In this document: piece after piece, positions 4,345-39,261 of the stretch
Numbering within the stretch: position 1 is the stretch's first letter
How the letters are laid out: every line of letters begins with the position of its first letter
Origin: Oscillospiraceae bacterium
Lineage (GTDB): Bacteria > Bacillota > Clostridia > Oscillospirales > Ruminococcaceae
Assembly: GCA_024697725.1 (NCBI GenBank)
Contig: JAILFE010000199.1
Span: 1-54,459, forward strand
DNA length: 54,459 nt
Direction: 5' to 3'
Notes under the pieces: model-generated
Databases searched by the model: none
Told to the model about the DNA's origin: nothing
What the model saw: the letters and a program-made list of their open reading frames with translations, nothing else
Made by a program: the position numbers and the translations under genes

Positions 4345-5922
4345 TCATCTTCCGAGAAGAGTGACATTGTCGGCTATCTCCCTGAATATCGGAGCACAGC
4401 TTACATTCCCCGAAACGCCGTCCTCCGCGATTATGACAACGGCATAGCGAGGTCTTTCAAACGGAAAGAAACCCGCAAACCAGCAGTCCAGCTTCTCGCT
4501 GCCGTTTTCGTGAAAAGTGCCTGTCTGAGCAGTCGATGTCTTGCCTCCGCCTGTTGTATGCGACGGTATTCCGAGAGAACTTTCCTTCATGAGCGTGTCA
4601 TGCATAAAGCTGCGCAGCTTCTCCGATGTTTTGACGGAAAAGATGGTCTTGCTGTTCGTTTTTCTCTTCGGGATATCGTTCATGCCGGACGTTATTCCGG
4701 TCACAAGGCAGGGCTGCGGCATTTCTCCGCCGTTTGCCGCGGCGCAGATAAAGCTGCATACCTGTACCGGAGTTGCGGTGAGCATTCCCTGACCGAAGCA
4801 GAGATTGGCTTTTTCGGCGGGAATTGCAATATCCGATATATCCGGTACATTGCCGTCCGAGCTGATCAAGCCGCCGAGATCGCTGCTCTCTCCGAACCCG
4901 CAGCATTTTATAAAAGCTATCAGACGGTCGTTCGGGATATTCCTTCCGAGACTTATGAAATAAGGATTGCAGCTCTCTATCATTGCCTGACGCATATCGA
5001 GCTTCCCGTGACCGCTCCACAGGTGACAGTTGAAACGCTTTCCGCAGATATCGGTATATCCTCTGCAATTATATGTGTAATCCTCGGATATCCCGCCTTC
5101 GAGCGCCGCCGCCGCGATCACGAGCTTGAAAACAGACCCGGTGCTGTATGCCGAGAATGCTCTGTTCACGAATGGCGCTGTGCTGTCGTTCAGGGATGCT
5201 TCTATATAGTTTATATCATAGCAGGGTCTGCTCACCGAGGCGAGGATATCTCCGCTTGCAACGTCCATTATGACAGCAGCGCCGCACTGTATCCCCGACA
5301 TTGCTCTTTCGCATATCCTCTGGATATCGGTATCGAGCGTGGTCACGACACCGGCAGTGTTTTCTTCGGTCTTTACCGTCCTTGCGGCTATGCCGTCGAG
5401 CGTATCTCCGAGAGCATTGACACTGAATGTCATGCTTTCTTCAGATGTGCTTGTACGCAGAAGATCATCATATGCTCCTTCTATCCCGCATACCCCTTTT
5501 CCACCTGATGTGTAGCCTATGACGTGAAGAGCGGGCTGATCGTCGGAATAGCGCTGCTTGACTTTGATGACCGGATTTGATTCGTCCTCGGGATAGGTGT
5601 TGTCTACTCTGCACAGGAACGGTATATATCCCGACATACCTGAACGGAAACGTTCCTTGTCGAGGATATGACTGAAAGTCTTCGTGAGATCGCAGCTGCC
5701 CGGATCTATCAGTGCATAGCTGATATCGCTGCGGTTCACGAGCGGTCTCATGTTCCTGTCATAGATATATCCGTAGTTGGTTATCTTTTTTACGGTGTAG
5801 GTCCCTGATTGTGATGCTGCAGTTATGACCCGGCTGTCGTTTATTATTTTTATCAGATGCATTGACGCCGCAGCATATAAAAGCATTAACACAGCTGCAA
5901 AAATATATATTCTTCTTCGCAT
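4345..5922 (-). CDS. class B penicillin-binding protein (PBP2/FtsI/SpoVD-type transpeptidase, no PASTA domains)
   Basis: 525 aa with an N-terminal TM (IYIFAAVLMLLYAAA). Motifs are SxxK (STGSVFK), SxN (ESCN) and a KTG-like motif present as KTSTAQTG. RBS GGAGGTG lies upstream of ATG 5922. Confidence 0.85.
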   Translation of the reverse strand: MRRRIYIFAAVLMLLYAAASMHLIKIINDSRVITAASQSGTYTVKKITNYGYIYDRNMRPLVNRSDISYALIDPGSCDLTKTFSHILDKERFRSGMSGYIPFLCRVDNTYPEDESNPVIKVKQRYSDDQPALHVIGYTSGGKGVCGIEGAYDDLLRTSTSEESMTFSVNALGDTLDGIAARTVKTEENTAGVVTTLDTDIQRICERAMSGIQCGAAVIMDVASGDILASVSRPCYDINYIEASLNDSTAPFVNRAFSAYSTGSVFKLVIAAAALEGGISEDYTYNCRGYTDICGKRFNCHLWSGHGKLDMRQAMIESCNPYFISLGRNIPNDRLIAFIKCCGFGESSDLGGLISSDGNVPDISDIAIPAEKANLCFGQGMLTATPVQVCSFICAAANGGEMPQPCLVTGITSGMNDIPKRKTNSKTIFSVKTSEKLRSFMHDTLMKESSLGIPSHTTGGGKTSTAQTGTFHENGSEKLDCWFAGFFPFERPRYAVVIIAEDGVSGNVSCAPIFREIADNVTLLGR

Positions 5923-6027
5923 ATGCGGACACCTCCTATATATAGTGTCTGCCGCAAATTCGTTATTATACTAATGTCCGGAAAATATCCCAAAAGATAA
6001 AAAACAGCAAAAGAAAAGGTGAACAGA

Positions 6028-31287: not shown

Positions 31288-32370
31288 ATGGACAAGAAAA
31301 TTGCTGTCATCAAGGGCGACGGTATAGGTCCCGAGATCGTTTCCGAAGCGATAAAGGTACTTGACAGGATCGCAGAAAAGTACGGTCATACATTCGAGTA
31401 CGATCAGCTTCTTATGGGCGGGTGCTCGATAGACGCATACGGGGTTCCGCTCACAGATGAGACTATCGAACGCTGCAAGGCTGCCGATGCTGTTCTTATG
31501 GGTTCTATCGGCGGAAATACGACCACATCCCCGTGGTATAAGCTCCCGCCGGATCGCCGTCCCGAGGCAGGACTGCTGAAAATAAGAAAATCACTCGGTC
31601 TTTTTGCGAATCTTCGTCCCGCTGTGCTTTATCCCCAGCTTGCCGGAGCGTGTCCGCTGAAGGAGGAGATAAGCTCCCGCGGCTTTGATCTGCTCATCAT
31701 GCGCGAACTCACCGGCGGTCTTTATTTCGGCGAAAGGAAAACCGAAGAGATAAACGGTGTGATGACTGCTGTTGACACGCTTTCCTATAACGAGAACGAG
31801 ATACGCAGGATAGCGATAAAGGCATTTGATGTAGCTATGAAGCGCAGGAAAAAGGTGACTTCCGTTGACAAGGCAAATGTGCTTGATTCTTCACGCCTGT
31901 GGAGAAAAGTCATAAACGAGGTCGCTGCGGATTATCCCGAGGTGACTGTCGAGCATATGCTCGTAGACAACAGCGCGATGCAGCTTGTAAAGGATCCCGC
32001 ACAGTTCGATGTGCTTGTTACAGAGAATATGTTCGGCGATATCCTTTCGGATGAAGCCTCGATGATAACAGGCTCGATAGGTATGCTTGCTTCGGCGAGC
32101 ATGAACGAGACAAAGTTCGGTCTCTATGAACCGAGCGGCGGATCTGCTCCGGATATTGCCGGTCAGAACAAGGCAAATCCCATTGCGACCATACTTTCGG
32201 CAGCAATGCTCCTGCGTTATTCGTTCGATATGCAGGCTGAGGCTGATGATGTTGAGAATGCAGTAAATGCTGTTCTTAATGATAATATCAGAACAGGCGA
32301 TATCATGTCCGAGGGCATGAAGCTCGTATCCTGCTCCGAAATGGGAAGCTGCATAGCGGAAAAGATCTGA
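31288..32370 (+). CDS. leuB: 3-isopropylmalate dehydrogenase
   Basis: [23 protein letters not shown] and [21 protein letters not shown] motifs. ATG 31288 follows AAAGGAGGA; the track start TTG 31279 is too close to the RBS. Confidence 0.93.
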
Positions 32371-32407
32371 ACGGAATATCTGCTGCAAAGAACAGTATAA
32401 AAAAATC

Positions 32408-32447
32408 ACGGACACTGCTCAATAAATAGCCGTGTCCGTTTTCTTGT
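32408..32447 (+). terminator. rho-independent terminator after leuB
   Basis: ACGGACAC (32408-32415) pairs with GTGTCCGT (32432-32439), followed by TTTCTTGTGTT. Confidence 0.65.
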
Positions 32448-32509
32448 GTTCGCCCGAAATGGTCAGTAATTTGGCGGTGAAAGTCCAATTGTGGACTTAA
32501 AACAGTTTT

Positions 32510-32845
32510 TTATTGTTTTCTTTTTTCTGCATATTTCCTTCTGATAAAGTTAATGACTTTTGTCATTATACATATAATTTTTGTCATTATAAATATTAGC
32601 AAGACGAATATCGCGATCAATAATAAGATTATCAAATCAAAAGCAAATTTGTGGTGTGAAAAATCATTGTAATACTTATTCCAGTCAAGTTCAATTTGAT
32701 TATTCAGTACATCATAATGAATATCGTATTCAAGGTAACCGGAATCATTAATAATATCGAACGAGTCTGAAGTTTGTATTATGCTGCCATTCTTGTCCAG
32801 AACTGCAACTTTTAACCTATATTTTTCATTATACAGCGGGATCAT
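32510..32845 (-). CDS. hypothetical protein with a C-terminal TM anchor; probably the distal part of a split gene
   Basis: 111-aa ORF in very AT-rich DNA, with a C-terminal hydrophobic stretch LIILLLIAIFVLLIFI followed by a basic tail. The same frame stays open upstream to 32992 and overlaps the 3' end of ORF 32929..33234. Confidence 0.5.
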   Translation of the reverse strand: MIPLYNEKYRLKVAVLDKNGSIIQTSDSFDIINDSGYLEYDIHYDVLNNQIELDWNKYYNDFSHHKFAFDLIILLLIAIFVLLIFIMTKIICIMTKVINFIRRKYAEKRKQ

Positions 32846-32928
32846 TAGATCTCCGTCAAGAAGAAGATTTCCTTCATCACCTTTTTTCAGAATAAAATTA
32901 TTCTGTGTTTCTTCCCTGTCACCTTTAT

Positions 32929-33234
32929 CTATTCGTCTATCTTCATTTTTGTATAGTTGTCTTTGTAATGACAGGACAGGCTCAAATAGCCTTCACTGTC
33001 GATGTATCCGACTAATTTACTGTAATCGAAATCGTACATTTCCAAATTTGCCTTATTGATATCAATATAATGTTCATCAGACGTTTTCATTTGTATGAGA
33101 ATATCAATGTACTCGGCATTATCCGGAATATTGTACGAATAAACTGTCAGACTGTCTTTGGGCGTCGCATAAACATCAATATGTAAAATAAGAGTTCCAA
33201 AAACAACAGTTAAAAGAAAAAATATAACTTTCAT
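32929..33234 (-). CDS. hypothetical secreted protein fragment (signal peptide); probably the proximal part of a split gene
   Basis: 101-aa ORF beginning MKVIFFLLTVVFGTLILHIDVYA (signal-peptide-like), with RBS GAGGA upstream. It ends just after an A5 run (plus-strand T5, 32946-32950). Confidence 0.5.
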   Translation of the reverse strand: MKVIFFLLTVVFGTLILHIDVYATPKDSLTVYSYNIPDNAEYIDILIQMKTSDEHYIDINKANLEMYDFDYSKLVGYIDSEGYLSLSCHYKDNYTKMKIDE

Positions 33235-33271
33235 TTATTCCTCAATATATAAAACATTAGTGGGATTCTTA

Positions 33272-34639
33272 TCAATCTGTCACCGTAATGCCGTAGCTCT
33301 CGCAGAGATTCGCGATCCCGCCCTGATACCCGCTTACAACTGAGGATAATCTCCACAGTCTGTTATTTCTGTACAATTCAACTGCAACGATAGTTTTTTC
33401 ATTATCGAGATCAATAAGCGGCAGCTCGGCACATCTTTTTCCGCACTTTATCATGACAATTCCGTCGTGCAGCATACGGAATGTCTTGCTGCTGTCGTCG
33501 CCATATATATCATATGCTATAGTGATGCGTTCTATGCTGTATGGAATACGCACAAGATCTATTATCACCTGTCTGTGCTGTCCTGTGTCGGAATAGCATA
33601 CGGCATTGTTCGCATAGGAAGTGTTCCCGAAAAAGATCACATTTTCATCGGTCACAGCCCTGCCGTAATGGTCGAGCAGGAATGTGTATGCGTCTATATC
33701 GAGATTTTTGTCCATTGACGAGTAAAACAGCTCTATGCTGATGATACCATCGCCAAGCATCTGTTCGATATTTATACGCTGTCCGCGGCAAAGCCTTATA
33801 AATCCCGGCGATCGGCTGCGTATCACAGCGCTGACACCCATATAACTCATATCATACGGTCTTGAAGGCAGAGCATTATCATGGTCATGCATGATCTCAT
33901 CCCGAACAGGTGTCTGCTCCGCAGTCTTGACAGCAGTATCGGGTCTTTCCGAAGATGTCTGCTTGCTATTTTTCTGAGGTGGTATGTATTCTATCTGATC
34001 GGATACCTGATTTACGAGCCTTCCGCTGTTTATATCAGGTGCAAATCCGCGTGACGGATCGGATGCGGAAAAAGTGATAACGGTTTTTCTTCTGAGTACA
34101 GAGCAGAACTCTATATCGCCGCAGACAGAAACTCCTTCGGCAAGCGGGTCAACTGTAAAACAAAGACAGCTTTTTCCGGGGGGCAGCTCAGTAGGGGATA
34201 CCGAGACACCGCTGATATTATTAATCAGATGAGCAGCTGCCGGGATACGTATCTCTGCATAGAATATAAATTCCTCGTTTGCGGGTATCCGTCCGAGCCT
34301 TATCACATCAGGTATCTCCCATGTCCCGCTGTCTCCGTCGATTCCGAGTGTATTGCCGTATACCGTGATATTTTCAAAGGCGGTATTGTGACCGTGGGAA
34401 TCTATCGCCGCACTGTCCGCACCACCGCCTGTTGTTTCAATAGTTATGTCCCGCAGGGTGACATTATCCGATCTTATATCCGCCGAAGTGCCGTTCAGGC
34501 ACCAGATAGTGGTATTATTCCCGCATATCGTACACGGATGTGAGATCACTATCGGCCCTTCAAATTCACCGCACGGAAGCAATGCTGTTCCGTTTGGCGG
34601 AGTTGCTTTGATAATAGCGTCTATTTCTCCGCTGTTCAA
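33272..34639 (-). CDS. cytoplasmic multidomain protein: N-terminal beta-helix-like region plus a C-terminal divergent TerD domain
   Basis: 455 aa with no signal peptide or TM. Residues ~280-452 follow the TerD family pattern: NLDIDAYTFLLD, DENVIFFGN, VIIDLVRIP, ERITIAYDIYG, and ELYRNNRLWRLSSVVSGYQGGIANLCESYGI (compare [24 protein letters not shown]..FGV in TerD). The N-terminus has NVTLRDITIETTGGG...AFENITVYGN. Confidence 0.6.
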   Translation of the reverse strand: MNSGEIDAIIKATPPNGTALLPCGEFEGPIVISHPCTICGNNTTIWCLNGTSADIRSDNVTLRDITIETTGGGADSAAIDSHGHNTAFENITVYGNTLGIDGDSGTWEIPDVIRLGRIPANEEFIFYAEIRIPAAAHLINNISGVSVSPTELPPGKSCLCFTVDPLAEGVSVCGDIEFCSVLRRKTVITFSASDPSRGFAPDINSGRLVNQVSDQIEYIPPQKNSKQTSSERPDTAVKTAEQTPVRDEIMHDHDNALPSRPYDMSYMGVSAVIRSRSPGFIRLCRGQRINIEQMLGDGIISIELFYSSMDKNLDIDAYTFLLDHYGRAVTDENVIFFGNTSYANNAVCYSDTGQHRQVIIDLVRIPYSIERITIAYDIYGDDSSKTFRMLHDGIVMIKCGKRCAELPLIDLDNEKTIVAVELYRNNRLWRLSSVVSGYQGGIANLCESYGITVTD

Positions 34640-34665
34640 CTATTTTCACCTGCCGATCATAATGC

Positions 34666-35322
34666 TCAGAATTTTCTCTTGCTTTCGATCACCTTGCCGA
34701 AAATTCGTATCCTCTCCATTTCGTTTCCTTCAAATCTCCTCGGAGGATAATACGGGTTGATGCTTATCAGTTCGATATAATTCCTGCCAAAATTGACCTT
34801 TTTTACCACTCCGTCCTCGTTGTCTATGAGGACGACGGCATATTCACCGCTTTCAACGATCTCCTGGCAGCGAACGAGCACAAGATCGCCCTCCATTATG
34901 AGCGGGCTCATCGAATCGCCGATCACCTTCAGATAAACATAGTCTGATCCGCTTCTTATGAGATCTTTTGAAGCATATTCATAATACTCGATATTTTCCT
35001 CGGCGTGGCAGGCAAGACCGGCAGCAACACGTCCGATCACGGGAACTCGCGCGTAATCACCGAGGTCTGCCGGATATACATTTCTGGGCATAGCGTATGA
35101 CCTGTCAGCCTGGCTTTTTCCGCAAAGCCATTCCGGTGTCACACCCAGAGCCGCAGCTATGGCATTGAGTACAGGTGCCTTGAAGTTCTTGATAGACCCG
35201 TTTTCATACCTCTGTATCGTAGAGGCGGCAACTCCGACTTTCTTGGCAACTTCATAAAGCGTAAGACCTTTTTCTCTGCGCTTCTGTATGATCCTTGCTG
35301 ATATTTCACTGTTTTCAGACAT
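34666..35322 (-). CDS. XRE-family HTH repressor fused to an S24 (LexA/CI-type) autocleavage domain
   Basis: The HTH_XRE region is KRREKGLTLYEVAKKVGVAASTIQRYENG. The LexA-like cleavage site is VPVIGRVAAG. The catalytic Ser lies in VIGDSMSP and the Lys in GVVKKV. RBS GGAGG lies 8 nt upstream. Confidence 0.85.
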   Translation of the reverse strand: MSENSEISARIIQKRREKGLTLYEVAKKVGVAASTIQRYENGSIKNFKAPVLNAIAAALGVTPEWLCGKSQADRSYAMPRNVYPADLGDYARVPVIGRVAAGLACHAEENIEYYEYASKDLIRSGSDYVYLKVIGDSMSPLIMEGDLVLVRCQEIVESGEYAVVLIDNEDGVVKKVNFGRNYIELISINPYYPPRRFEGNEMERIRIFGKVIESKRKF

Positions 35323-35353
35323 ACGGCCGGCCTCCGTTCGGTTTTATAGGTGT

Positions 35354-35380
35354 GTGCTGCTGTATATCCCGCAGCAGCAC
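35354..35380 (-). repeat. 9-bp perfect inverted repeat GTGCTGCTG-N9-CAGCAGCAC between the membrane-protein gene and the S24 repressor gene
   Basis: Arms at 35354-35362 and 35372-35380. It sits 10 nt after the upstream stop and about 30 nt before the repressor ATG. No U-tract follows. Confidence 0.6.
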
Positions 35381-35390
35381 GGGTGTATTG

Positions 35391-37004
35391 TTAATTGCTG
35401 CTTGTATCGTTTGTATAGTATGCATCCATAGTCTTGCTGGAAACAAGCATTATGAATGAAGCAAGACTGAATATCAGTGCGATCGCGAACCAGATCACCA
35501 TCTTATTGAAATCAGGATTGTTCTTTGCGATATCGGGGTCGATCTTGCGCTGGTTCACGATATACATTACAAGTCCGGGGATCGCAAGAACAGCGGAATT
35601 CGCAAGGAAATAAAGCGTCGAAAGAGTTTTGACAGGCTTTGCCTTTATCATCAGAAGGAGAGAGAACAGTGCTGTGCCGATCGAAAGAAGTATATACAGA
35701 GTATAGTTATCTATCTCACTTCTTCCGATGCCGACGAATGTCGCACCGGCAGATGCAAGTCCGAGGAACATCGTAACAAGTGTGAGCGCAAATCCCTGCT
35801 TAGCTTTTTTGATGCGCTTTTCATCCATGAGGCGGTTGTACATCGCCTGACTTGCCTTCATATTGAAGTTTTCGGGACGGCGGTTGATCTCGTCCTGCAT
35901 CCTCTGCTTGATCGCCTGCTTTTCATTGTCGGCGAGCTTATCCTTTGTGGAAAGGTCCTCGGTCCTTATGCGCTCCTTTACTGTCGTATACTCGTTGCTC
36001 AGATCCTCAAGGATAGGCTTTTCATCCAAAGCCATATCCATATCGTCCATCATGACCATATTCTTTATGGCTGCGGCCGCATCGCGGTCTGTGGAAGTGC
36101 TGCCGGAATGCTTGCTCTTCTTGTCCATATCATCGAGAATGATATTGCTCGGGTCGATGTCGCTCAGAGCACTGTCATCAGGGAGAGCTTCCTCTCTGTT
36201 GTATACATTCTTGTCAGTGGCAGACAAACGGCTCTTTCCGTTATCAAAACTCATATCCGATGCCGGATCCGGAGTGAGCATATCATCCGAACGGGCGGGA
36301 GCTGTGACGCGCGCGCCTCCGGCATTTTTGGGAGGTGACGGCTTTTTGAGCGGCGGAAGATCAAATTTATCTACATCTATATCATTGGGATCTATGGTAA
36401 GCTTTTCGGCACGGCTTATTTCAGCCTCGGAATATGTAACATCGCTTACATTGATATCAGAAGGTGATATATCGTTGATGCCCGTATTTTTTTTCAGCGG
36501 CGGAAGAGATGTGAAGTCATCTGTCACAACATCCGCGCTGCTGACGTCTGAAAGTCCCTCGGGGCGCGAAACCGGCTTCCTGTTACGTCCGATATCACTG
36601 ATGAAAGGAGTGGAGGGAACATCACCATAGATGTTTTCTTCTGTAAACTGCGAATAATCGGTCTGTGAATAATCCTCCTCTGTGCTTTCGTCTGTCTGCT
36701 CTGTATATACGGGAGCTTTTTCCTCACTGTAGGACTGCCCGGAATAACTGCCGTCATAGCTTTCTTCACTGTATTCTCCGGAATTGTCGTCATAGCTCTC
36801 GCCGCTGTAATTGCCGCCGGAGTAGGTATCGCTGTTCGTATCCGCATAATCGGTATCGGATACTGCCGGTTCATCTGATGATTCTGTATATGAAGCTTCC
36901 GCCGTGCTGCTGAAAGAAAAATCAGCGGGCTTTTTTATCTGGGGCAGAGGCGGAAGCTCAAAATCAAGGTCTCCGAGAATATCGTTATTTTTAGTATTAG
37001 GCAT
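35391..37004 (-). CDS. membrane protein with a ~400-aa acidic, disordered N-terminal region and a C-terminal 4-TM domain
   Basis: 537 aa. There is an S/D/E/Y low-complexity block (YSGGNYSGESYDDNSGEYSEESYDGSYSGQSYSEE). An (F)xLPPLxKK motif occurs three times. Four hydrophobic segments lie in residues ~404-522. Confidence 0.7.
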   Translation of the reverse strand: MPNTKNNDILGDLDFELPPLPQIKKPADFSFSSTAEASYTESSDEPAVSDTDYADTNSDTYSGGNYSGESYDDNSGEYSEESYDGSYSGQSYSEEKAPVYTEQTDESTEEDYSQTDYSQFTEENIYGDVPSTPFISDIGRNRKPVSRPEGLSDVSSADVVTDDFTSLPPLKKNTGINDISPSDINVSDVTYSEAEISRAEKLTIDPNDIDVDKFDLPPLKKPSPPKNAGGARVTAPARSDDMLTPDPASDMSFDNGKSRLSATDKNVYNREEALPDDSALSDIDPSNIILDDMDKKSKHSGSTSTDRDAAAAIKNMVMMDDMDMALDEKPILEDLSNEYTTVKERIRTEDLSTKDKLADNEKQAIKQRMQDEINRRPENFNMKASQAMYNRLMDEKRIKKAKQGFALTLVTMFLGLASAGATFVGIGRSEIDNYTLYILLSIGTALFSLLLMIKAKPVKTLSTLYFLANSAVLAIPGLVMYIVNQRKIDPDIAKNNPDFNKMVIWFAIALIFSLASFIMLVSSKTMDAYYTNDTSSN

Positions 37005-37034
37005 AAAATATACCGTCCTTCCATCTGGTTTATA

Positions 37035-37874
37035 TTATTGATCGCTGACAGATATCGTATCGGGGAAAACGTTTGCAGAGCTGTCCTGCAAAAACGTTGT
37101 ATTGACAAAGCCCTTGATGATGGCTCCGTCAAGCACAGTTATCGCCGCTGCATTTATGTCTCCGATAACTATAGCGTCATTTTTGAACTCTGCTTTGCCG
37201 CTGACTTCAATATTGCCTTTTACTCTTCCGTTGATATCGAGATACTGAGTAGTGATATCGCCGAGAAGCACGCTGTCCTTGTCCATGCGGACCTGACCCT
37301 TGGAATGTACATTGCCCTGCATCGACGAGCCTGCCATCATCGCATTGTTGCATTCAATATTGCCGACGAGCTTGCCTGTAAGGCTCACATCCTTGGATAT
37401 CCTTATATCACCGTTGACGCTGCCGTCCACCCTGACATTGGAAAAACCAGTGATCGTGCCTCCCGATATCATGATATTCTTCGAGATGACCGTCAGTTCC
37501 TCGGAACTGCGCTGTTCCTCGGCAGGCTCCGGCCTGTAGGTATGGAGCGGCGGCGGCTCTCTGTAGTGGTCGCCGCGCTGCGATGAATAGTCATTATGAT
37601 CATTGTAGTGATCGTACTGTGTATGCACAGAGTTCTCGGGTGCTGCTTCCTGCTGCACCGGCTCTTCGGGGGAGACGTTTTCACGCAGTGATGCATCTTC
37701 GGCAGAGGAGGCGGCTCCTGTGACAGCCTCCTTCAGCGATTCATCATCCGGTCTTCCGAGAAAGCCGTCAAGACTGCTGTCTTTTTTTGATTCCTCGGAT
37801 AGATTTTTACCTATGATACCTTCATTTTTCAGGATCTCTTTCAGAGCCTGATTGAAATTATCCTTTAAACTCAT
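37035..37874 (-). CDS. bactofilin family cytoskeletal protein with a long N-terminal extension
   Basis: The C-terminal ~130 aa show the bactofilin beta-helix pattern: TVISKNIMISGGTITGFSNVRVDGSVNGDIRISKDVSLTGKLVGNIECNNAMMAGSSMQGNV...GRVKGNIEVSGKAEFKNDAIVIGDINAAAITVLDGAIIKG. Confidence 0.8.
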   Translation of the reverse strand: MSLKDNFNQALKEILKNEGIIGKNLSEESKKDSSLDGFLGRPDDESLKEAVTGAASSAEDASLRENVSPEEPVQQEAAPENSVHTQYDHYNDHNDYSSQRGDHYREPPPLHTYRPEPAEEQRSSEELTVISKNIMISGGTITGFSNVRVDGSVNGDIRISKDVSLTGKLVGNIECNNAMMAGSSMQGNVHSKGQVRMDKDSVLLGDITTQYLDINGRVKGNIEVSGKAEFKNDAIVIGDINAAAITVLDGAIIKGFVNTTFLQDSSANVFPDTISVSDQ

Positions 37875-37946: not shown

Positions 37947-38843
37947 TCACTGTCCGGACGAGGAATTGCCTGTAAAAGAAAAACCTTCCTTTTCAAGGCG
38001 AACGATCACATCTTCAAGCGCAGAGATACCGACCTCTCCGCCCTCGCTGCCGCAGAAACCGAGCACTGCAAAGCCGTCGGAGCTTTCCGCTGCGGATATG
38101 GCAGCCGTATACGCTGAGCTCCAAGAGGGGACATCGCTGCCAATGTATGTGCTGTAGATAAGTCTTGTGCTGTCAAAGCGCCGCGGTCTTTCGGCTGTTA
38201 TGCTATAAACGTATCTTTCGGTGTCATAAAGTGAGGCATCCTCTTTGCCGTCATAAAGTATGCCTATCGCGTGCCCTTCGCTGTGGATGCGTTTCAGAAG
38301 AGAATCCTCATACGATCCGCTTTCGGGGATACACCCGGAATCAACGAGAAACAGCGAGGAAATGTCGTATTTCTCCAGTATCGAAAGTATATCCCCTGTA
38401 TTTGCCGACGGAGAGCCGTCAAATATAAGGCACACCGAATCCACAGCCGAAGCTGTATTGCTCCCGGCAGTCACTGGGGCATCGGATTCTATCTTTTCCG
38501 AATCGGTATATTCTGTCACTGCTCTGTTGATATAATTTTCCAGAGCCGAGCTGTTTTCTGAGCTCAGAAACTCTATGATATCATAATCGTCATATCCCTT
38601 TGCGGCAAGTGCGAGATATACCTGATCGATCGTAGTGCCATCCGGGACATTGAGTGCGGATGCGCTGATGGTGTCTCCGGGAACTCCCGTCTCGACAGAC
38701 GGAAGACTGACAGGTATCGCATTGCTGCTGTCAGCAGAGCATATTATACCAAAAAAAAGTGCAAAAGCTGCCATCAGTGCCGCAGCGCAGATAACAAAAG
38801 AATATATGACCTGCTTGAAAAATTTTACGCTTCCAAAATACAT
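37947..38843 (-). CDS. membrane-anchored polysaccharide deacetylase (NodB/CE4)-like protein with a degenerate motif 1
   Basis: VCLIFDGSPSANTGDILSILEKYDISSLFLV compares with the canonical TFDDGP...ATFF. Motif 2 HSEGH (H-S/T-x-x-H) is retained. There is an N-terminal TM. The track ORF runs to TTG 38924, but ATG 38843 (MYFGSVKFF...) lies 8 nt after GGAGA. Confidence 0.55.
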   Translation of the reverse strand: MYFGSVKFFKQVIYSFVICAAALMAAFALFFGIICSADSSNAIPVSLPSVETGVPGDTISASALNVPDGTTIDQVYLALAAKGYDDYDIIEFLSSENSSALENYINRAVTEYTDSEKIESDAPVTAGSNTASAVDSVCLIFDGSPSANTGDILSILEKYDISSLFLVDSGCIPESGSYEDSLLKRIHSEGHAIGILYDGKEDASLYDTERYVYSITAERPRRFDSTRLIYSTYIGSDVPSWSSAYTAAISAAESSDGFAVLGFCGSEGGEVGISALEDVIVRLEKEGFSFTGNSSSGQ

Positions 38844-39261
38844 AGCGTCATTCTCCATGAAAATGCAGCGGCAGTCAGATGCGGTGCTGCCGTCTGCAGT
38901 ATATTTCCGGGTATACTGATACAATTGCTGTCTGTATATCCATATACATATCTATAATACACCTTTTTTTCTTTCATGTCAACACTGTACTAACAAAATA
39001 ATTAGACATTTTTTAAATCATTTGTAACCTTTCGGAAGATGAAACAGTACGAAGCACATGATACAGGCGTAAAGTAAACTACTTTATATGTCCGTCTGAT
39101 GCTCTCACTGCACATTATTTTGTGCAAAATAACGAAAAATATCAACAGGCAGTTATATGTAAAATACAGCTCAATATGTCGGGAAAGTGCGCTCCTGCGC
39201 GGTTATATCGTCATTGCGCCGTGACTCCGGAGATATTTTGATAAAAAAATCTGTAAGGCTA

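Follow-up and report, generated by a model that had tools for sequence, protein, structure and literature searches.

The repressor and long TerD genes

Two adjacent genes were analyzed in contig JAILFE010000199.1 of an Oscillospiraceae bacterium (assembly GCA_024697725.1), the whole stretch of which, 54,459 nucleotides (nt) in length, is referred to here as the window. One encodes a LexA-like repressor and the other a protein of 455 amino acids (aa) that ends in a TerD domain, hereafter long TerD. Both open reading frames (ORFs) lie where an earlier annotation of this DNA (the original prediction) had placed them, and the distance it had given between the stop codon of the repressor gene and the start of the long TerD gene, 26 nt, is exact. 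The TTG start codon of the latter is preceded by an AGGTGA ribosome-binding site and backed by end-to-end alignment with homologues. The two genes and their parts are as follows:

34666..35322, (-) strand: repressor gene, 218 aa, XRE-type helix-turn-helix (HTH) plus Peptidase_S24, LexA-like
35125-35289, (-) strand: HTH of the repressor
34687-35043, (-) strand: S24 domain of the repressor
35017-35022, (-) strand: codons of A101-G102
34912-34914, (-) strand: codon of Ser137
34801-34803, (-) strand: codon of Lys174
33272-34639, (-) strand: long TerD gene, 455 aa, TTG start
34064..34639, (-) strand: N-terminal module, aa 1-192 (AlphaFold2, Foldseek, weak NosD match)
33806..34048, (-) strand: linker, aa 198-278, disordered and poorly conserved
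33272..33805, (-) strand: TerD domain, aa 279-455 plus the stop codon (Pfam TerD, PDB sequence and fold matches)

The repressor matches Pfam HTH_3 at its N-terminus (aa 12-66, E=1.3e-14) and Peptidase_S24 at its C-terminus (aa 94-212, E=7e-25). When it was aligned to E. coli LexA, the sequence VAAG (99-102) fell on the Ala84-Gly85 cleavage site, Ser137 of the GDSM motif on LexA Ser119 and Lys174 of the VVKKV motif on LexA Lys156, which together with the Pfam matches confirms the elements of an autocleaving repressor on an XRE-type HTH that had been proposed. Gly102, Ser137 and Lys174 are invariant in the repressor family (77/77 members), and the cleavage-site alanine (A101) is retained in 69 of the 77, the other 8 having glycine. 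Similarity to phage repressors is seen with the 434 repressor for the HTH (E=4.5e-7), with lambda CI over the whole protein (E=3.5e-6) and with the phage repressor family phrog_4 (E=8.5e-46). The canonical LexA model TIGR00498 was not reached (68 bits vs a cut-off of 110.95), and the match to it is limited to the C-terminal domain (aa 92-217). As far as can be read from its sequence, the repressor is complete as a self-cleaving S24 regulator with a CI/XRE-type HTH, and is assigned to the LexA-like S24 superfamily of CI/HdiR type, not to canonical LexA. No S24 genes other than orthologues of this repressor were found in the approximately 1 megabase of Clostridia DNA searched.

The highest mean Kyte-Doolittle hydrophobicity of long TerD over 19 residues is only 1.18, so that it has no signal peptide or membrane segment, in agreement with the absence of an export signal noted before. 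By prediction, it is a cytoplasmic protein in which a short beta-helix and an Ig-like sandwich are connected by a linker to a TerD domain. The identity of the latter, previously assigned from the appearance of the sequence, was borne out by Pfam (PF02342, aa 281-449, E=1e-25, 90.7 bits vs a cut-off of 25.3), by sequence matches to solved TerD structures and by Foldseek, which gave template modelling (TM) scores of 0.72-0.77 to 3ibz, 2kxt and 2qz7. The acidic calcium-binding loop of ordinary TerD proteins, GDNLTGEGEGDDE, is replaced in long TerD by SDT-GQHRQ, as had been noticed, with a deletion of seven residues by which calcium binding would be expected to be weak or lost; this loop (GDNxTGxGxGDDE) is a feature of characterised TerD proteins and not part of the Pfam definition of the family. 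The linker is modelled with a predicted local distance difference test (pLDDT) value below 50, and its length and sequence vary among the aligned long TerD homologues.

The first 200 residues or so had been described as a beta-helix followed by a beta-sandwich, and this also stood: the AlphaFold2 model of aa 1-192 is all-beta (pLDDT 93.5), residues ~100-192 match ASH/PapD-like Ig sandwiches in Foldseek and residues 7-101 give a weak match to the NosD beta-helix (E=1.3e-6, below the cut-off). Neither Pfam nor NCBIfam has a model for this beta-helix/Ig module. A profile built from it recovered 1003 representatives at E<=1e-3 in an exhaustive HMMER search, which was needed because a word-indexed search with the same profile gave fragments only. 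Elsewhere, the module is joined to TIR, vWA, WD40, Sel1, Ig (Big_2) and long Beta_helix/NosD regions, and residues E25, E68, W46, W107 and R184 are conserved across the family. This N-terminal module of ~190 aa is a large unnamed domain family that merits its own definition.

Conservation of the pair and distribution of long TerD in Clostridia

A survey in which one genome per species was scanned for long TerD yielded 65 related loci, nearly all of them from Clostridia and the majority from Oscillospiraceae or Ruminococcaceae; 61 of the 65 encode the full long TerD architecture. Two loci titled Escherichia coli (L050, CAVIFG010000072.1) and Alistipes (L064, CAYNYB010000021.1) carry Clostridia-type TerD and long TerD genes, and are probably mis-binned contigs. 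Mapping of the neighbours by tblastn and precomputed Pfam matches distinguished three contexts:

Context A (~30 loci): full ter cluster with three TerD genes, AIM24, long TerD, C-C lyase, ATP-grasp, PRTase/TRSP, StiP/PELOTA and HAD
Context B (~25 loci): P-type cation ATPase, TerD, long TerD, YceG and TelA (B. subtilis yce type)
Context C (11 loci): XRE-S24 repressor directly upstream of long TerD

The operons of context B, exemplified by L056, L043 and L059, where the YceG gene is of the YceG_bac type, are the Clostridial counterpart of the B. subtilis yce operon. Proteins with the same architecture of 400-450 aa are regularly encoded in the ter and yce-type operons of ~55 Clostridia genomes, and the loop deletion is present in all long TerD proteins, those within ter clusters included. 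Fusion and deletion are thus family traits, not peculiar to the window, and the idea that a TerD fusion was in itself an oddity of this locus had to be abandoned. None of the usual partners in ter and yce operons (TerD paralogues, TelA, YceG, TerC, ter biosynthetic genes) was found in the window.

Context C comprises the window, its 92%-identical relative L010, L082, L016, L015 (the same locus as L076 and L077), L085, L007, L011, L013, L014 and L012, the last of which is cut upstream and uninformative with respect to the repressor. In all ten loci with readable context the long TerD gene lies directly downstream of the repressor gene on the same strand, so the test of neighbourhood conservation put forward in the original prediction came out in favour of the pair. 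These loci form one clade nested among members of contexts A and B in a neighbour-joining tree of long TerD, and likewise one clade in the repressor tree. Judging from gene order and both trees, the pair is kept together in one monophyletic clade of gut Oscillospiraceae.

The surroundings of the pair change within this clade, which spans at least five different neighbourhoods: bactofilin and membrane protein genes (window, L010, L082), ftsQ-ftsZ (L007, L012, L013, L014), a glycosyltransferase gene (L015), PP2C and purB (L016) and ymdB-spoVS (L085). Identity within the clade is 64-70% for the repressor vs 37-42% for long TerD. The gap between the two genes is an operon-like 11-26 nt in the window, L010, L015/L076, L016, L082 and L085. 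In L011, L013 and L014 a non-coding insert is found between them (4794-5379, 5633-6000 and 5514-6000, respectively), with the hairpin GGCGGCGGCAGCCGTCGGCCGCC and, in L011, also repeated CTAAT(C/T)GCTAA units; these long spacers gave no match in Rfam. The junction between long TerD and ftsQ (5414-5470 in L007, 7291-7326 in L013, and its equivalents in L012 and L014) holds a ribosome-binding site only and no terminator, and from this arrangement long TerD is probably co-transcribed with ftsQ in the L007, L012-L014 sublineage, where ftsZ comes after a promoter-bearing gap of ~215 nt downstream of ftsQ.

The repressor family extends far beyond the pair. Outside the pair clade, orthologues that are 60-65% identical precede GalT (L078) or a Y-family polymerase gene (L080), or stand alone (L083, L084), the one in front of the polymerase gene being 62% identical.

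The gene array of the window and candidate regulatory sequences

In the window, the pair belongs to an array of seven co-directional genes separated by gaps of 26-83 nt, in the order deacetylase, bactofilin, membrane protein, repressor, long TerD and two small envelope ORFs. The direct coupling of the two genes that had been proposed holds as far as the short gap between them is concerned, but they are not a free-standing two-gene unit, and in one sublineage a terminator-like hairpin separates them. The elements of the array, from its head to its end, are the following:

38954..38982, (-) strand: promoter-like site TTGACA-17-TATTAT, the best match in the region (11/12 positions)
38933..38948, unstranded: perfect palindrome TGTATAT-GG-ATATACA, candidate operator, starting 6 nt after the -10 of the array promoter
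37947..38924, (-) strand: deacetylase-like gene, first in the array, 325 aa, membrane-anchored (Pfam Polysacc_deac_1, E=2.2e-5)
37035..37874, (-) strand: bactofilin gene, 279 aa (Pfam Bactofilin, E=4e-24)
35391..37004, (-) strand: membrane-protein gene, 537 aa, N-terminal half acidic and of low complexity, membrane helices at the C-terminus
35353..35381, (-) strand: hairpin GUGCUGCUG-N9-CAGCAGCAC with a stem of 9 base pairs (bp), in the 68-nt spacer before the repressor gene
32929..33234, (-) strand: small ORF, 101 aa, hydrophobic signal-like segment at the N-terminus, 37 nt 3' of long TerD, uncertain as a gene
32510..32845, (-) strand: small ORF, 111 aa, membrane helix at the C-terminus, uncertain as a gene
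32399..32439, (-) strand: intrinsic terminator, ~11-bp stem followed by U7, closing the array

The only strong promoter-like site of the array stands 3.6 kilobases upstream of the pair. The bactofilin is 69% identical to the one at the same position in L082. No family match was found in Pfam or NCBIfam for the 537-aa membrane protein (top hydrophobic window 2.68), a homologue of which sits between bactofilin and repressor in both L082 and L010. In two species, a membrane protein of ~510-540 aa follows bactofilin within 30-42 nt upstream of the repressor (35391-37874 in the window; 56-2214 in L082), and this large protein could possibly be the membrane anchor of the bactofilin. Neither of the small ORFs has a family match or a homologue in the related loci, and their equivalence to the lipoprotein gene that follows the pair in L082 was rejected, the sequences being unrelated. 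The G+C content dips to 0.40 at 32000-34000, compared with ~0.47-0.48 around, a region that spans both small ORFs (32510-33234), and this end of the array may be a recent insertion. The terminator lies in a 66-nt stretch with a folding energy of -18 kcal/mol (z-score -3.1).

The palindrome at the head of the array is the only perfect match to TGTATAT-GG-ATATACA in the window. The right half of that palindrome recurs unchanged as GGATATACAG (35360-35369) in the hairpin in front of the repressor gene, and this 10-mer has exactly two exact copies in the window, both inside the array. The 70-nt spacer stretch with the hairpin folds at -20.2 kcal/mol (z -2.0), and no U-tract follows the stem at 35353-35381. 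Relatives in which the repressor has a separate promoter share TTGATT-N17-TATAAT/TATCAT. In L085, L011, L013 and L014, the -10 of the repressor promoter is closely followed by a palindrome of the type ATAT-GR(G)-ATAT. Counting the array promoter of the window, such palindromes are present in 5 of 8 promoters, vs 0.45 expected from shuffled sequences. The operator search took in the inverted repeats of 13 repressor promoters, motifs resembling ATTGCGCAAT or TTGC-N-GCAA, and the comparison of repressor promoters with repressor-to-TerD spacers in each genome; only the position-specific AT-rich palindromes after the -10 passed the shuffle control, and these are partly non-independent.

The Cheo box GAACNNNNGTTC (GAAC-N4-GTTC type), recognized by LexA of Gram-positive bacteria, was found neither in the window nor beside the pair in related loci, and canonical SOS control of the pair was therefore rejected. 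In L080 and L081 (7814-7858), the -10 of the Y-family polymerase gene directly behind the repressor orthologue lies between two Cheo-type LexA boxes (AGAACATATGTTC).

A putative stress switch and its alternatives

With moderate confidence, we propose that the pair is a chromosomal stress switch composed of a stress-cleavable LexA-like repressor of CI/HdiR type and an adjacent long TerD effector. A single relocation would have brought the long TerD gene right behind the repressor gene in one Oscillospiraceae clade, where it then stayed. The closest parallel is offered by HdiR of Lactococcus and Streptococcus, a LexA-like protein with a CI-type HTH and an S24 domain that is found in an HdiR-umuC arrangement (PMC8565304). 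Both regulators have an XRE/CI-type HTH with S24, an Ala-Gly site and a Ser/Lys dyad, both are chromosomal and unrelated to phages in their location, and one of the repressor orthologues identified here also precedes a Y-family polymerase gene; homology between them is read from the shared domain families. HdiR is autoregulated and transcribed with or beside few effector genes, and the repressor described here adjoins its presumed effector gene and would likewise be autoregulated. However, the partner in this case is a TerD-family protein and not umuC, and the bacteria probably also have canonical LexA, to judge by the Cheo boxes of L080.

According to this proposal, a repressor dimer would bind a palindrome overlapping the start site of the module promoter, a role that in the window could be played by TGTATAT-GG-ATATACA at the head of the array. 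Upon a stress signal, the repressor would cleave itself between A101 and G102 by means of the Ser137/Lys174 dyad; the residues are in place, and cleavage and signal are presumed. By analogy with LexA, CI and HdiR the default trigger would be a RecA filament on damaged DNA, which fits because a Y-family polymerase gene adjoins one repressor orthologue, although a RecA-independent trigger such as that of IrvR might also operate. Derepression would then raise the levels of long TerD and, in the window, also those of bactofilin, the membrane protein and the small envelope proteins. More speculatively, long TerD may bind or protect its target in the cytoplasm through a pocket in the N-terminal module (E25, E68, W46, W107, R184) and the TerD sandwich, and this target would probably be located in the envelope or the division machinery. 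An envelope or division partner is hinted at by the conserved N-terminal residues, by the ftsQ-ftsZ and bactofilin neighbours, and by reports that Y. pestis and E. coli form filaments when terZAB is expressed (PMC4633105) and that a ter operon raised survival of E. coli to UVC (PMC8123226). The regulatory link from repressor to long TerD is read from gene order only, and autoregulation at the palindromes, self-cleavage and the trigger we infer. The original prediction had spoken of a TerD fusion placed under a damage-cleavable repressor, and of this formulation the conserved adjacency stood, whereas "damage-cleavable" and "placed under" should be read conditionally, with no firm operator at hand.

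Several observations weigh against the stress-switch proposal. The repressor of the window lacks the TTGATT-N17-TATAAT promoter conserved in its relatives and depends on upstream transcription. No operator motif common to all lineages emerged from the 13 repressor promoters; three of the five palindrome-positive promoters are closely related, and AT-rich palindromes arise easily. Variants of GGATATACAG with one mismatch occur 16 times in the window vs 2.9 expected, which lowers the weight of the two exact copies. A spacer of 368-586 nt with a terminator-like hairpin parts the repressor and long TerD genes in L011, L013 and L014, so that co-transcription of the pair is not universal, and in L007, L012, L013 and L014, with ftsQ located 36-57 nt 3' of long TerD, the latter looks co-transcribed with ftsQ instead. 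Finally, the twin Cheo boxes in L080 suggest that these bacteria also have canonical LexA, and with it likely present the repressor of the pair need not respond to DNA damage.

Among the alternatives, one would be that long TerD is an input and not an output, sensing a metal, a metabolite or the state of the envelope and modulating cleavage or DNA binding of a repressor whose regulon lies elsewhere, in the manner of RecA or of the anti-repressors and co-proteases that accompany other phage-type repressors. Co-inheritance of the two genes even where the terminator-like hairpin separates them and they are probably transcribed separately would be in line with this, as would the fusion of the N-terminal module to signalling domains (TIR, VWA, WD40) in other proteins and the much stronger conservation of the repressor compared with long TerD. 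S24 repressors, however, cleave themselves, and the orthologous repressors function without a long TerD neighbour, so we see this option as unlikely.

Another alternative is that long TerD is a damage- or stress-induced modulator of division or morphogenesis, a cytoplasmic functional analogue of SulA or YneA. The division-inhibitor genes yneA, chiZ and divS adjoin lexA in Gram-positive bacteria, as is generally known, and the present pair resembles these and SulA in having an effector gene beside a LexA-type repressor, with some loci bordering ftsQ-ftsZ or bactofilin. In four loci ftsQ and then ftsZ come shortly after long TerD, and in three others (window, L010, L082) the bactofilin and membrane-protein genes precede the pair. 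Nevertheless, long TerD, a soluble multi-domain protein of 455 aa, is unlike YneA, ChiZ and DivS, all of them small and of membrane or LysM type. Other clade members have unrelated neighbours (glycosyltransferase, purB, spoVS), and proteins of the same family work within ter and yce operons that are unconnected with division. The filamentation phenotype mentioned above would be a point in favour, but it maps to terZAB, different from long TerD (PMC4633105). On balance, a role of this kind seems rather improbable. The same low expectation applies to its most specific form, an undescribed stress checkpoint in which the LexA-like repressor releases a Ter-family protein that acts directly on FtsQ/FtsZ or the bactofilin machinery. 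If true, this would represent the first concrete molecular function for a TerD-domain protein, and the N-terminal module, found in TIR, vWA and WD40 proteins as well, would also be defined as a binding domain that is both new and widespread.

It could also be argued that there is synteny without any functional link, long TerD having landed once beside a conserved regulator and persisting there by inertia or hitch-hiking. A single event in one clade and the lack of a demonstrable shared operator are compatible with this view. Against it, the flanking genes were reshuffled at least five times and the pair stayed adjacent and co-oriented, even as long TerD diverged to 37% identity, with gaps of just 11-26 nt in most lineages, and we give it little credence.

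A prophage, plasmid or defence origin of the pair was rejected. The neighbours in the window are housekeeping genes (leuCDB, folD, lgt, pgk, ftsK and that of bactofilin), and no phage structural, replication or integration genes were detected in it or at any of the related loci. Searches of IMG/VR and of the GenBank phages of INPHARED returned no relatives of long TerD or of its N-terminal module, so the possibility, contemplated in the original prediction, that the pair would occur only inside prophages did not materialize. Long TerD gave no match in PADLOC, in which the repressor had only generic HTH matches (to capH and RmrA), and the plasmid search returned one remote match with 22% identity. 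Hence, although the repressor resembles phrog_4 and the 434 and lambda repressors, and an XRE gene in first place followed by a short gap is a layout like that of type II toxin-antitoxin pairs, we regard it as highly improbable that the pair is what remains of a prophage, a CI repressor with its cargo (moron) gene, or that it serves as a toxin-antitoxin or anti-phage defence system, given the absence of phage genes and of viral or PADLOC matches to long TerD and the presence of the pair in six different core-genome neighbourhoods.

The stress switch proposed here can be set beside other systems. Phage repressors of the CI/434/lambda type are alike in HTH and whole-protein alignment, but the repressor in question has no prophage context and is vertically conserved in a bacterial clade. 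Phage-repressor-like S24 regulators have been recruited to host stress responses in other cases: the non-canonical LexA proteins of Bacteroidetes command a full SOS regulon via CTAA-N5-TTAG-type motifs (PMC8565304), whereas here no regulon is visible beyond the adjacent genes, and IrvR of S. mutans undergoes self-cleavage without RecA and controls non-SOS outputs (PMC7101444). The ter and yce systems (terZABCDE; yceCDEFGH of B. subtilis) include the same long TerD family, with the TerD fold confirmed, yet in the window there is no other ter or yce gene nearby and the long TerD gene is coupled to an S24 repressor instead. Ter clusters were reportedly described by Anantharaman, Iyer and Aravind in 2012. 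No description of a TerD protein under a LexA-like or S24 repressor was found in the searchable literature, which did not cover that 2012 Ter paper, and we know of no TerD-type partner for any S24 repressor.

The stress-inducibility of Ter proteins as such was already known, and it is the pairing with an S24 repressor that is special here. The carriers are uncultured Oscillospiraceae from gut and rumen, which limits the reach of the finding. What the widespread TerD-domain stress proteins do biochemically has been unclear for decades, and the pair clade offers a minimal system in which one self-cleaving repressor and one Ter protein are found without the ten or so other ter genes, providing a modest lead as to how Ter proteins may be switched on.

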